Counted from the stretch's first letter, positions 25,744 to 29,375 are shown. The stretch: 64,000 bases of DNA from Escherichia coli (GCF_046105845.1 NZ_CP151004.1), one strand, 5' to 3'. Translations and numbers: made by a program. The notes: generated by a model from the sequence alone, not told the origin.

Positions 25744-27444
25744 ATGATTATCGGTATTGACCTCGGGACGACTAACAGTCTGGCAGCGGTATGGCGAAAT
25801 GGACAAAGTGAACTGATCCCCAATGCGTTAGGCAAGTTTTTAACACCCAGCGTAGTTTGTGTTGACGAAAATGGTATGGTTTTGACAGGGGAGGCAGCTC
25901 GTGACCTGCAACTCATCAAACCACAAAATTGTGCAGCCAATTTTAAACGCATGATGGGCACATCAAAGACGTTTAAATTGGGCGGACGTGAATTTCGGGC
26001 AGAGGAACTCTCATCGCTGATACTGCGTCAGCTAAAAGAAGATGCTGAAAGCTATTTAGGTGAAGAGATAACAGAAGCAGTAATTAGCGTACCTGCTTAT
26101 TTTGGTGATGTGCAACGCAAAGCAACAAAATTGGCAGCTTCAATGGCAGGCTTAAACGTCGAGCGTTTAATTAACGAACCAACCGCCGCTGCACTGGCGT
26201 ATGGTTTGCATAATAAAGATGATGAACATCAATTTTTGGTATTCGATTTAGGTGGTGGTACGTTTGATATCTCCATACTGGAGTTGTTTGACAATATTAT
26301 GGAAGTACGAGCCAGTGCCGGGGATAACTTTTTAGGTGGTGAAGATATTGTCGATATCCTGATCGATGCATATTGCTCAAGGCGGGATCTTCCTGAAAAT
26401 ATTGAATGGCGTGAACCGACACTCCAGCGCAATTTACGCATCGAGGCTGAGCGTGTCAAACGCGTGCTTAGTATGCGCGACGAAGCTACTTTCAGTATGG
26501 AGATTGAAGGAAGGCGATATTACTGGCATCTGACCACAGAAAAATTTGAATTTTTATTACAGACCTTTTTCGAGCGAATACGTATGCCACTGGAACGGGC
26601 AATTCGCGATGCCAAAATTAATATTAGCCAATTAGACCAGGTTGTTCTTGTGGGTGGCACTACACGTATGCCACTGATTCGCAAACTTGTGACACGACTA
26701 TTTGGTCGTATACCGGCAATGCATTTAAACCCGGATGAAGTCATTGCCCAGGGCGCGGCTATTCAGGCAGCACTTAAAGCGCGGCACAGGGAATTACGAG
26801 ATATTGTAGTGACCGATGTTTGCCCTTATACGCTGGGCGTTGATACCTCTAAATCGCTGGGGCATACCCGCGAATCAGGCTATTTTGCACCCGTTATTGA
26901 GCGTAACCGAAGTATTCCTTGTAGTCGCGTTCGTGCCTTTTACACAGCACATGATCAACAAACAGAGGTTAATTTTAAAATCTACCAGGGTGAAAGCAGG
27001 ATGGTGGCTGATAATATTTTCCTTGCGGAGTTGTCAGTGAATGTTCCGCCAAAACCGGCCGGTGATGTGCGTATTGATGTTCGTTTTACGTACGACATTA
27101 ACGGTATTCTTGATGTCGATATCAGCGTGCCACTGACAGGGGCTAAAAATAGTCTGGTTATTGAACAGAATCCAGGGGCATTAACGAAAGAACAAATACA
27201 GCAGTCGTTGTCCAAATTAAGCCTGTTAAAAATTCACCCACGCGATGAACAGATAAACCAGGCCTTTATTGCCCGTCTTGATAATCTCTATCAACTCACC
27301 CTGGCGGAAACACGAGACTGGATAAGCAATTGCTCTCGTCAATTCAGTTATCTACTCGAGAAGCAGGATCCTGATCAACTAGCTGATTTTCGGGCTAAAG
27401 TTGAACCTACATTAGACTCTCTGGAATGGGAGCGTCTGCAATGA
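25744..27444 (+). CDS. Hsp70-family ATPase, HscC-like specialised chaperone (accessory)
   Basis: 566 aa from ATG at 25744 with GAAGAGGA RBS (track ORF begins at an upstream TTG); IGIDLGTTNS, DLGGGTFD and VGGTTRMP ATPase motifs; strong resemblance to remembered HscC; lower GC than flanks. Confidence 0.8.
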   Translation: MIIGIDLGTTNSLAAVWRNGQSELIPNALGKFLTPSVVCVDENGMVLTGEAARDLQLIKPQNCAANFKRMMGTSKTFKLGGREFRAEELSSLILRQLKEDAESYLGEEITEAVISVPAYFGDVQRKATKLAASMAGLNVERLINEPTAAALAYGLHNKDDEHQFLVFDLGGGTFDISILELFDNIMEVRASAGDNFLGGEDIVDILIDAYCSRRDLPENIEWREPTLQRNLRIEAERVKRVLSMRDEATFSMEIEGRRYYWHLTTEKFEFLLQTFFERIRMPLERAIRDAKINISQLDQVVLVGGTTRMPLIRKLVTRLFGRIPAMHLNPDEVIAQGAAIQAALKARHRELRDIVVTDVCPYTLGVDTSKSLGHTRESGYFAPVIERNRSIPCSRVRAFYTAHDQQTEVNFKIYQGESRMVADNIFLAELSVNVPPKPAGDVRIDVRFTYDINGILDVDISVPLTGAKNSLVIEQNPGALTKEQIQQSLSKLSLLKIHPRDEQINQAFIARLDNLYQLTLAETRDWISNCSRQFSYLLEKQDPDQLADFRAKVEPTLDSLEWERLQ

Positions 27445-29375
27445 ACTGCTGGGAAATATTAGGTTTACAACCTGGCGCGGAAGAACGAGATATTAAGCGT
27501 CGTTATGCGCAACTGGTAAAAAATTGCCGCCCGGAAGATTCTCCCGAAGCCTGGCAACAATTGCACGATGCTTATGAACAGGCTTTACGTTATGACGACG
27601 AAGATCAGTGGCAAGAAGAGGAAGAAGAGCAACCGATCAATATATCCAGGGGTATTGTTCATCCTCGTCCTGTGATGACATTTCGCGCACTCAACACCTT
27701 TTCTGGTCATCCACTTCCTGATGTCACTATTAAATCAGAGGAGGAATTCACCTGGCAAGCCGTGCTGGATATGCTCTGTGAGGAGAATGAAGCAACCCCC
27801 GAACACGCCCCCATGCAACTTGCTAAGGCGTTATCTTTCCTTGAGAAAAAAGATCTCAGCTCACGAATGAGCTTTGAAGAAGCGTTATTACTGCATCTTC
27901 ATCGGGTATTCCGGCCATTATTAACTCTCGCTGCTGCACAAACGTTCAGATGGCATTTAGTTGCAGGCAGTCGTCAACCCGTAATCCAGACAGAAATTAA
28001 CGAAAGTTGTCTTCTTTATTATCGCATCGAAAAAGAAATTACCACTTTCTTTGCCAGTAACTTGTCTCCACTGGAAGAAATGGAAAACGGGAAGGAAATG
28101 GCTACGATTTATCAATCATTAAAGGATAATGAAGAGAGCCTGAAATGGTTTGATATCGCAGTATTAAATAAAATTGCTGAATTTGAACTGTCAGACAACT
28201 ATATGGCATTGTTAATAGAGCGTTTATCATATTCCTGGCGAAAAGAAAAAATGATTCGCAAGTGGAAATTAACAGAACGCTTCAATAATTTAGCAATGCA
28301 ACATCATAGTGGATATAAAAAGTTACTAAACGCCATAAAATTAAAAGGTCTTTTTTATTATCCATCTTTTGTATTCCAGTCCTGCTTACATGCTGCAGAG
28401 CAAGACTATTCACTTGCCTGGTATTCTCTTGGCAAAATGTATTACGAAGGTGATGAGGTTTCACAGGATCTAAAATTAGCCTTTAATTGGTTTAGCCGTG
28501 CCGCGCAGCATAATGTTATCGATGCTCAGTATGCGCTGGGCATCATGTATAGCGATGGAAGGGGCACGGATAAGAATATTAGCGAGGCACGAAAATGGTT
28601 ATTACTTGCTGCCCAAAATGGCAACGCATCTGCGCAATATGAGCTTGCCCGTATCTCACGCTTTGCTGTTGAGCCATTACGAAATTATGAAGAAGCATTA
28701 CAGTGGTATTTATCTGCCGCCACACAAGGACATGAACTTGCCCAGTATGAATTGGGACAAATGTATATACAAGGGATTGGCGTGGAGCGCGATGAGGTAC
28801 AGGCCCATCGTTGGTTTTTGCAATCGGCGGAACAGGACCATTCAGACGCACAATATCATACTGCCAGCTTGTATAGTGAAAGTGAGAGTATTCCACAAAA
28901 CCAGGAAAAAGCGCAGTACTGGTTTACCAGAGCTGCAAAAAATGGTTCCGGGGATGCCATGTATGAATTGGGTAAATATTATTTAACCAACAATGATGAT
29001 CCTGAAAATAATGCTGAGGCTATTCAATGGCTTACTGGTGCAGCGCAGCGTGGGAAAATAAAGGCGATATTTTTGTTAGCCGAAATGTATCTCTACGGTA
29101 CAAAAGATGTCGCAAAAGATGAAAATCATGCGCTGCACTGGTACGAAAAAGCGGCGCGTTTAGGGGCAACCGAAGCGCAACACCAGACTGCGGCAATGTA
29201 TGCTCAGGGGACAGGCACTAAAATTGATAATAAACAAGCATGGATGTGGCTAACAATTGCCGGAAATAACAACCCTTGGATTGAAAAAGATGCGTTGCGA
29301 TGCTTAATGTCGGAACAGGATATTCAGGATGCAGAACAAACGGCTGCAAATTGCAAACGTCTGCTAAGGATTTAA
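27441..29375 (+). CDS. J-domain-like / Sel1-repeat protein, DjlB/DjlC-like putative co-chaperone (accessory)
   Basis: 644 aa from the ATG overlapping the upstream stop (ATGA); alternative ATG at 27426; N-terminal J-like helix pattern (WEILGL...RRYAQLVK...) with RPE at the HPD position; about seven Sel1-like repeats C-terminally. Confidence 0.75.
   Translation: MNCWEILGLQPGAEERDIKRRYAQLVKNCRPEDSPEAWQQLHDAYEQALRYDDEDQWQEEEEEQPINISRGIVHPRPVMTFRALNTFSGHPLPDVTIKSEEEFTWQAVLDMLCEENEATPEHAPMQLAKALSFLEKKDLSSRMSFEEALLLHLHRVFRPLLTLAAAQTFRWHLVAGSRQPVIQTEINESCLLYYRIEKEITTFFASNLSPLEEMENGKEMATIYQSLKDNEESLKWFDIAVLNKIAEFELSDNYMALLIERLSYSWRKEKMIRKWKLTERFNNLAMQHHSGYKKLLNAIKLKGLFYYPSFVFQSCLHAAEQDYSLAWYSLGKMYYEGDEVSQDLKLAFNWFSRAAQHNVIDAQYALGIMYSDGRGTDKNISEARKWLLLAAQNGNASAQYELARISRFAVEPLRNYEEALQWYLSAATQGHELAQYELGQMYIQGIGVERDEVQAHRWFLQSAEQDHSDAQYHTASLYSESESIPQNQEKAQYWFTRAAKNGSGDAMYELGKYYLTNNDDPENNAEAIQWLTGAAQRGKIKAIFLLAEMYLYGTKDVAKDENHALHWYEKAARLGATEAQHQTAAMYAQGTGTKIDNKQAWMWLTIAGNNNPWIEKDALRCLMSEQDIQDAEQTAANCKRLLRI

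Follow-up and report, generated by a model that had tools for sequence, protein, structure and literature searches.

A probable operon for an HscC-type Hsp70 and an overlapping J/Sel1 co-chaperone gene in an accessory island of Escherichia coli

The locus and its genes

We have analysed a 64,000-nucleotide stretch of Escherichia coli DNA (GCF_046105845.1, NZ_CP151004.1), called the window below. In it, two consecutive genes at 25744-29375 encode a chaperone of the Hsp70 type and a protein that carries a J-like domain followed by Sel1-like repeats, here called J/Sel1. The start codon of the second gene overlaps the stop codon of the first. The two genes probably constitute an operon for a specialised pair, an HscC-subfamily Hsp70 and a dedicated class-C J co-chaperone, in which synthesis of the co-chaperone would be coupled to that of the Hsp70 by reinitiation and the co-chaperone would act as a variable client adaptor. 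The features of the two genes are as follows.

25744..27444, + strand: HscC-subfamily Hsp70 gene, 566 aa, similar to HscC over its full length, ending in TGA (27442-27444)
27426..27428, + strand: upstream ATG in the J/Sel1 frame, incidental to the Hsp70 codons GAA-TGG (Glu-Trp), not the start
27428..27432, + strand: Shine-Dalgarno-like GGGAG inside the Hsp70 open reading frame (ORF), 8 nt before ATG 27441
27441..27444, + strand: ATGA stop/start overlap, formed by the J/Sel1 ATG and the Hsp70 TGA, kept in 10 of 12 junctions
27441..29375, + strand: J/Sel1 gene, 644 aa by translation, ending in TAA
27441..27599, + strand: J-like domain, aa 1-53, with the triad RPE for HPD (Pfam DnaJ, hhalign and AlphaFold2, AF2)
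27600..27734, + strand: acidic disordered linker, aa 54-98 (AF2 confidence, pLDDT, < 50)
27735..28370, + strand: all-helical middle domain, aa 99-310, restricted to this J/Sel1 family
28371..29270, + strand: solenoid of 8-9 Sel1-like repeats, aa 311-610
29271..29375, + strand: C-terminal helices (AF2 helices 616-642) and TAA stop

The stop-start overlap and the J/Sel1 start codon

Bases 27420-27449 read tctgga ATG gga gcg tct gca ATG A ac tgc, with the Hsp70 stop TGA at 27442-27444 and the J/Sel1 ATG at 27441-27443, which amounts to a -4 overlap. The overlap described in the initial annotation is thus real, and RefSeq/PGAP has the same 4-nt overlap in E. coli 042 and 536. In 042 (L001), for example, the RefSeq coding sequences run 6745..8445 and then 8442..10385, for an Hsp70 family protein (WP_000583403) and a J domain-containing protein (WP_000995915). 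The overlap is, in other words, already captured by standard annotation and is a routine operon feature, of little import alone. The tetranucleotide ATGA occurs 607 times within the window, a count that is uninformative, and by a heuristic gene call possible ATGA overlaps are present in 4 of the 35 co-directional neighbour pairs of the window. The three others (42380-42383, 43411-43414 and 44886-44889, all on the + strand) fall in a single operon at 41163-47190, whose five genes (+ strand; 406, about 344, about 492, 447 and about 322 aa) show how ordinary such an overlap is. This operon is probably astCADBE. Huber et al. (2019, PMC6728339) put the share of prokaryotic gene pairs that overlap co-directionally at about 15%. 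The overlap is accordingly not above chance as a motif; it is above chance as a conserved feature.

An alternative start at ATG 27426 had also been suggested. This ATG is present, is in the same reading frame as ATG 27441, and is where a mechanical ORF list begins J/Sel1; its use would add a 5-residue extension (MGASA-) and lengthen the overlap to 19 nt. That it serves as the start is highly improbable. No Shine-Dalgarno-like sequence is seen 5' of it, the equivalent codon is K, N, R or Y in four related loci (L004-L007), the ATG is gone in E. coli 536 too, and in L006 an in-frame stop lies between the equivalent position and the conserved ATG. The relatives all start M-(N/S/T)-C-W-E-(I/V)-L-G, at the usual position of a J-domain N-terminus, and PGAP chooses the equivalent of 27441. 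Judged by this comparison of relatives, ATG 27441 is the translation start of J/Sel1.

Conservation of the junction was followed in a census of 12 junctions at which an HscC-type Hsp70 gene is followed by a J-protein gene. The relatives came from an exhaustive HMMER search, after which the contigs were retrieved. The exhaustive search was needed to find relatives: a word-indexed protein search with the N-terminal 320 aa of J/Sel1 gave close E. coli fragments alone, and a degenerate DNA pattern scan of genome contigs proved too strict (4 loci, 1 of them relevant, from Klebsiella spallanzanii). The junctions are of three kinds.

ATGA (-4) overlap, 10 of 12: the window, E. coli 042, E. coli 536, L004, L005, L006, L007, Klebsiella spallanzanii (L011) and two separate pairs on L014
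1-nt (-1) overlap, 1 of 12: a Pantoea megaplasmid (L018)
12-nt spacer with an AAGGA Shine-Dalgarno sequence, 1 of 12: L015

The overlap persists even where the J-protein shares no more than 37-41% identity with that of the window. At the ATGA junctions examined, the last Hsp70 codon is always NNA (CAA, CTA or TTA). CTA and TTA are rare leucine codons and CTG is the common one; a terminal leucine is nevertheless specified by a rare codon, and CTG would destroy the ATG. This codon choice points to selection on ATG 27441 as a start codon. In all examined relatives of this J/middle-domain family, and in most of the broader RPD-type relatives, the Hsp70 gene lies directly 5' of the J-protein gene and overlaps it or almost does.

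At the position of GGGAG the orthologues have GGAG, GGAT, GGAC or AGAGA, and the Shine-Dalgarno-like sequence is partly forced by the conserved acidic codons of the Hsp70 tail. The encoded tail, (D/E)-x-(D/E)-R-L-(L/Q)-COOH, is conserved wherever the ATGA overlap exists (27418-27441 in the window, and the orthologous junctions). By analogy with the binding of EEVD to TPR domains it could dock in the Sel1 groove of the partner; alternatively, the Shine-Dalgarno sequence and start codon that overlap it may be all that constrains it. The metagenome contig that carries two HscC-type Hsp70/J pairs, each with an ATGA overlap (ERR14048345_3155; L014 1-11404), has Sel1/MORN, TPR and DUF4034 genes next to them and thus holds several modules of this kind clustered together.

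The Hsp70 belongs to the HscC subfamily

The mechanical ORF of the Hsp70 gene, 25729..27444, begins at TTG. ATG 25744 is preceded by GAGGA and gives a protein of 566 aa, as in RefSeq, where the orthologue is named 'Hsp70 family protein'. NCBIfam models for DnaK and HscA match the protein below their cut-offs. It is 44% identical to K-12 HscC over 551 aligned residues, that is, over the full length, and its size falls within the 550-580 aa given for the HscC subfamily (PMC8215388).

The hallmarks of the subfamily as described by Mayer (PMC8215388) were sought in an alignment (A3) of the window Hsp70, four orthologues, K-12 HscC and DnaK. The deletion in lobe I of the nucleotide-binding domain (DnaK 76-101) is seen as gap columns 78-101 and is common to K-12 HscC and the four orthologues. 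The loop that bears the GrpE signature is missing (a gap of 6 residues around DnaK 'YITADATGPKH'), and there is a small deletion near the J-binding loop (the DnaK D211 region), seen as a 4-residue gap at DnaK 'DEVD'. In the beta part of the substrate-binding domain, loop L1,2 has an insertion of 8 residues (the SLGHTRES region) vs 4 in K-12 HscC, where 4-8 aa are expected. The alpha lid of the same domain is shortened (helix B): it has a gap of some 21 columns for which a 10-residue insertion compensates in part, and the exact size of the gap thus varies with the alignment. The tail is short, another HscC hallmark. Residues with catalytic or allosteric roles, corresponding to DnaK D8, K70, R167, N170, E171, D194, T199 and D201, are invariant in A3. 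Length, indels and conserved residues together place the window Hsp70 firmly in the HscC subfamily.

Architecture of the J/Sel1 protein

The N-terminal domain of J/Sel1 is J-like. Its Pfam DnaJ (PF00226) match, over residues 3-46, is weak (E = 2.1e-4), as are the matches to J-domains in the PDB (E = 0.01-0.6). AF2 predicts helices at 15-28 and 35-50 with pLDDT > 90, as in the helix II/III hairpin. The domain is related specifically to DjlB and DjlC, to which it is 35% identical over 49 aa and which hhalign aligns with residues 2-54 at a probability of 96.7%; beyond residue 54 hhalign gives no alignment of J/Sel1 with these proteins.

The triad is R30-P31-E32 (codons 27528-27536) rather than HPD, and RPE is invariant in the family (alignment A1). 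Among the 156 most similar N-termini, RPD occurs 67 times, HPE 31, RPE 26 and HPD once. A 2026 review considers HPE to be the sole tolerated replacement of HPD (PMC13254874). That an RPE J-domain stimulates the ATPase is an assumption. RP(D/E) J-domains are nonetheless closely paired with HscC-type Hsp70s in genomes, which argues for their being functional. The RP(D/E) clade is large and often encoded just after an HscC-type Hsp70, and it would contradict the HPE-only view if its proteins are active.

Of the helical middle domain, the start, to about residue 180, is common to other RPD/RPE J-proteins. Two identities considered for the domain were rejected. A fused DUF1266 domain (as in YbeR, YbeU and YnjI) received an hhalign probability of 0.1%, and BLASTP against YnjI gave no match; nor is it the body of DjlB/C, with which the J-domain alone aligns. 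The solenoid that follows has the tandem 36-aa repeats, forming an alpha-solenoid, that characterise Sel1 (PF08238). The C-terminus, ...AANCKRLLRI, is polar and helical and contains no hydrophobic tail anchor, as judged from the translation and AF2 rather than from a dedicated transmembrane predictor.

Evolutionary rates and J/Sel1 paralogues

The two genes evolve at very different rates. Identity between loci is 75-86% for the Hsp70 vs 37-41% for J/Sel1. The ratio of nonsynonymous to synonymous divergence (dN/dS), as NG86 estimates obtained with our own script from few pairs, is 0.03 for the flanking genes topB and gdhA, 0.09-0.20 for the Hsp70 and 0.29-0.46 for J/Sel1, and is below 1 in every region with enough sites. 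J/Sel1 thus evolves 3-4 times faster than the Hsp70. These ratios indicate that both genes are under purifying selection and functional, J/Sel1 being much less constrained.

The number of J/Sel1 genes also varies. In E. coli 536 (L008 3198-7118) and K. spallanzanii (L011 3899-8404; also L007), two tandem J/Sel1 genes follow one Hsp70 gene. The first overlaps the Hsp70 gene and the second begins 27 nt downstream with its own Shine-Dalgarno sequence. In Klebsiella huaxiensis, three AFDB proteins suggest three paralogues. Over the first ~540 nt, which encode the J-domain, the linker and the first helices, the two copies of 536 share about 100% identity; further on this drops to about 45%, a pattern suggestive of gene conversion or of cassettes being exchanged via a constant 5' module. 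The window gene is the orthologue of the second 536 copy (92% vs 51% protein identity to the other copy), and its single-copy arrangement probably arose by recombination between 5' repeats of the 536 type, an event that would automatically preserve the ATGA junction. HMMER matches to other J-protein families likewise reach only about residue 172-180. Residues 1-180 of J/Sel1 therefore look like a constant, Hsp70-facing module and the remainder like a variable one.

Distribution of the pair

The two genes make up an island of about 4.1 kb and about 44% GC between flanks of 51-58% GC. Homology with K-12 has two breaks, one within the 3' end of topB at about 25214 and the other precisely at the stop of gdhA (29431), which give the interval 25214-29431 of the window. 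Because the upstream break lies inside topB, the basic C-terminal tail of TopB differs between alleles. Over 5,426 complete E. coli genomes, the site between topB and gdhA is found in three states.

ynjI (DUF1266, as in K-12): 3,506 genomes; K-12 locus L003 4716-5999
no gene between topB and gdhA: about 1,500-1,600 genomes
the Hsp70 and J/Sel1 pair: 354 genomes with full-length genes, 367 with any match (about 7% of strains)

Carriers include Nissle 1917, 536, ATCC 25922 and 042; K-12 is without the pair. In the hscC cluster of K-12, djlB and djlC too have DUF1266 genes as overlapping partners, so that the two alternative cargoes of the topB|gdhA site both belong to the HscC-associated gene set.

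The pair adjoins gdhA in other enterobacteria as well (L004-L006, and L011 from K. spallanzanii, of which L007 is the apparent counterpart), and Hsp70 divergence roughly tracks that of topB and gdhA. Plasmid and phage collections gave matches at the level of the J-domain alone and no member of the family. Old vertical inheritance with repeated loss would fit these comparisons better than recent transfer. The upstream border of the island is itself variable, since extra genes are found there in two loci. L004 has a gene for a 266-aa protein without a Pfam or PHROG match between topB and the Hsp70 gene (3434-4234), and L005 has a fimbrial-domain protein and a 57-aa ORF in the same place (2687-4126).

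The best E. coli matches to the window are 99.0% identical in the flanks (strain 19KM1831, from a dog) and 97.7% in the island, and topB and gdhA differ from those of E. coli 042 by a synonymous divergence of about 0.07-0.11. From these levels, the window represents a somewhat divergent E. coli lineage that has no close counterpart among the complete genomes.

A model for the pair and its alternatives

In the mechanism that we propose, a single transcript would start in the AT-rich leader upstream of the Hsp70 gene, and the Hsp70 would be translated from ATG 25744. Ribosomes ending at TGA 27442-27444 would, most likely, re-initiate on ATG 27441, aided by GGGAG. The co-chaperone would then be made only when the Hsp70 is synthesised, without a fixed ratio but at no more than about one per Hsp70. 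Its J-like domain, in spite of the RPE triad, would set off ATP hydrolysis by the cognate HscC-type Hsp70; this Hsp70 would need no exchange factor if it behaves as HscC does (PMC8215388). Residues 1-180 would form the constant part that faces the Hsp70, and the rest of the middle domain together with the Sel1 repeats would form a variable, client-binding adaptor. A dedicated Hsp70 with variable client adaptors is the likeliest role for the system, and translational coupling of its two genes is plausible.

Several observations weigh against parts of this model. The HPD histidine, held to be indispensable (PMC13254874), is an arginine in J/Sel1. An RPD-type J-protein gene on L017 has no adjacent Hsp70 gene; the view of the initial annotation that such pairs are obligate two-component systems is accordingly favoured by the synteny of the Hsp70 and J genes and disfavoured by this locus. 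In L015 the 12-nt spacer stands in place of the overlap, and in 536 the orthologue of the window J gene is non-overlapping with its own Shine-Dalgarno sequence, so that the overlap is not essential to this J-protein. GGGAG, a good Shine-Dalgarno sequence, could allow independent initiation. Folding of the junction mRNA (27380-27480) is not significant (z = -1.34), and orthologues do not conserve the small hairpin in which the Shine-Dalgarno sequence is paired; on these results mRNA structure was rejected as the means of enforcing coupling. A further inference drawn earlier from the overlap, that it sets a fixed stoichiometry, is unsupported, because an overlap couples expression without setting a 1:1 ratio. 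Some strains have two or three J/Sel1 genes per Hsp70 gene, and J-proteins act catalytically and are far scarcer than Hsp70s (DnaK about 34 uM vs DnaJ 2.3 uM; PMC8215388).

If the overlap reflected genome compaction and phylogenetic inertia, J/Sel1 would be translated mainly by de novo binding of ribosomes at GGGAG. The good Shine-Dalgarno sequence at optimal spacing before ATG 27441 is as this explanation predicts; the L015 arrangement works with a spacer and AAGGA, the second paralogues of 536 and K. spallanzanii have Shine-Dalgarno sequences of their own after 27 nt, and ATGA overlaps are common. We nevertheless consider it rather unlikely, given that 13 of the 14 overlapping pairs examined experimentally were strictly coupled (PMC6728339), and that the overlap is still kept in orthologues whose Shine-Dalgarno-like element is weak or variable (AGAGA, GGAT, GGAC). 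An internal promoter for J/Sel1, which the initial annotation had held would speak against coupling, was looked for as well: no promoter-like site was found on the + strand from ~26,300 to 28,200, in a scan of low power that also missed the operon's own promoter.

An explanation of another kind is that the pair, instead of being a chaperone of the housekeeping type, would form a conflict or defence module whose fast-evolving Sel1 adaptors pass foreign or infection-altered proteins to a private Hsp70 for remodelling or inactivation. The patchy accessory distribution (354-367 of 5,426 E. coli genomes), the low-GC island and three-state locus, the tandem recombining adaptor paralogues with their constant 5' module, and the 3-4 times faster evolution of the J-protein would all suit such a module. 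Positive support for it, however, goes no further than the patchy distribution and this fast, modular evolution, and we regard it as improbable. PADLOC gave no credible match and PHROGs nothing informative for the pair; the proteins have no nuclease, toxin or membrane effector domain; dN/dS stays below 1 in all regions with enough sites; the locus looks vertically inherited beside gdhA in several enterobacterial genera, with the Hsp70 diverging as topB and gdhA do; and the family is absent from the phage and plasmid collections searched, while the literature gives the defence reading no support. A more elaborate form, with one HscC-type motor serving one to three adaptors that are swapped via the 540-nt 5' module and sense foreign or infection-altered proteins, the RP(D/E) J-domains being fully active, seems to us similarly improbable. 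Decay is the remaining alternative: the pair could be what is left, no longer functional, of an ancestral enterobacterial locus. Most E. coli have lost it (about 1,500-1,600 genomes have nothing at the site and 3,506 have ynjI there), and some strains have truncated J/Sel1 versions of 517-539 aa. Yet the window and five genera-level relatives retain both ORFs intact and at full length, dN/dS is well under 1 and the catalytic residues are conserved, which makes decay very hard to believe. We therefore retain the coupled chaperone and adaptor pair as the probable explanation.

A known defence system was considered separately and rejected. In PADLOC-DB 2.0 the pair gave a marginal PDC-M61B match (E = 8e-4, in the actin/Hsp70-fold region) and a repeat-driven PtuA match without a significant stretch, PHROGs were uninformative and the literature held no match.

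Comparison with known systems

The closest known system is that of K-12 HscC with DjlB and DjlC, encoded in the hscC-djlC-ybeU-ybeT-djlB-ybeR-ybeQ cluster; DjlB and DjlC are proven partners of HscC (PMC8215388), and stimulation of the ATPase by no J-protein other than the cognate Djl type is a criterion for the HscC subfamily (Kluck et al., 2002, cited in PMC8215388). The two systems have Hsp70s of the same subfamily, with the 44% identity and shared indels described above, and J-domains of the same clade. Sel1 proteins are also present in the K-12 cluster (YbeQ and YbeT), and YbeQ is 34% identical to the Sel1 part of J/Sel1. The djl genes of K-12 likewise start with a 4-nt overlap, but with upstream DUF1266 genes, whereas the window J gene overlaps the Hsp70 gene itself. 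Unlike DjlB/C, which are tail-anchored and have the triad HPE, J/Sel1 is a single soluble polypeptide that carries both a J-domain and a Sel1 solenoid, together with an orphan middle domain; it has the triad RPE and no tail anchor. The window pair, moreover, is in an accessory island rather than the core genome, and has no DUF1266 gene.

In dnaK-dnaJ of E. coli, too, an Hsp70 gene precedes the gene of its J-protein within one operon. However, those genes are 88 nt apart, DnaJ is a class A protein with HPD, and DnaK needs GrpE, whereas HscC-type proteins are without the GrpE signature (PMC8215388). The junction itself resembles the ATGA overlaps of termination-reinitiation coupling, such as trpB-trpA (Huber et al., 2019, PMC6728339), with a -4 overlap and a Shine-Dalgarno sequence inside the upstream ORF; the motif is identical. 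J/Sel1 differs from the 'DnaJ-TPR' class (PMC10410713; eukaryotic DNAJC3/p58IPK and DNAJC7) in having Sel1 repeats in place of classical TPR repeats, an N-terminal J-domain, RPE and a bacterial HscC-type partner, and has no sequence relationship to TPR-containing J-proteins outside the generic solenoid. The Sel1 proteins c5321/EsiB (of the uropathogenic E. coli strain CFT073), LpnE and HcpC are secreted or periplasmic and have no J-domain. J/Sel1 would be cytoplasmic, because it has no signal peptide and its J-domain is N-terminal.

What is described here is a specialised HscC-type Hsp70/J-protein pair; the overlap itself was already known. It is an intact, unstudied HscC-type Hsp70 system in well-known strains, absent from K-12. 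The constant N-terminus and variable C-terminus of the adaptor, together with its copy-number variation, suggest client diversification, which could help explain the purpose of HscC-type chaperones, a question that is still open (PMC8215388). The RPE and RPD J-domains would offer a natural test case for the activation of Hsp70 by J-domains. If fully functional as activators, they would run contrary to the HPD/HPE-only view.

Operon signals and flanking sequence

Two further features border the pair.

25560..25743, + strand: AT-rich leader, presumed promoter region of the operon, ending in the Hsp70 Shine-Dalgarno sequence GAGGA
29389..29420, strandless: 12-bp stem-loop, likely a bidirectional terminator, between the convergent J/Sel1 and gdhA genes

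GC content falls to 0.376 over 25500-25999. A strict sigma-70 scan gave no site in the leader 25560..25743, where a promoter is nevertheless presumed, and promoter-like sites in total were fewer than expected from shuffles. The stem-loop at 29389-29420 (-17.5 kcal/mol, z = -5.3) was equalled in stability by 0 of 200 shuffles; relative to the break at 29431 it falls on the side of the island. It is the sole strong hairpin, and it comes after the second gene of the pair.

The leader also contains a perfect palindrome, TGTGAAcattaTTCACA, at 25667-25683 (TGTGA-N7-TCACA), about 60 nt 5' of the Hsp70 start. Its spacing is one base over the CRP type, and it may be a binding site for a regulator. Further upstream in the topB-Hsp70 intergenic region, within 25360-25560, lies an ERIC/IRU (enterobacterial repetitive intergenic consensus) core at 25485-25522 on the - strand, with 2 mismatches to the consensus. 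It is present as a single copy in the window, where the chance expectation is none.

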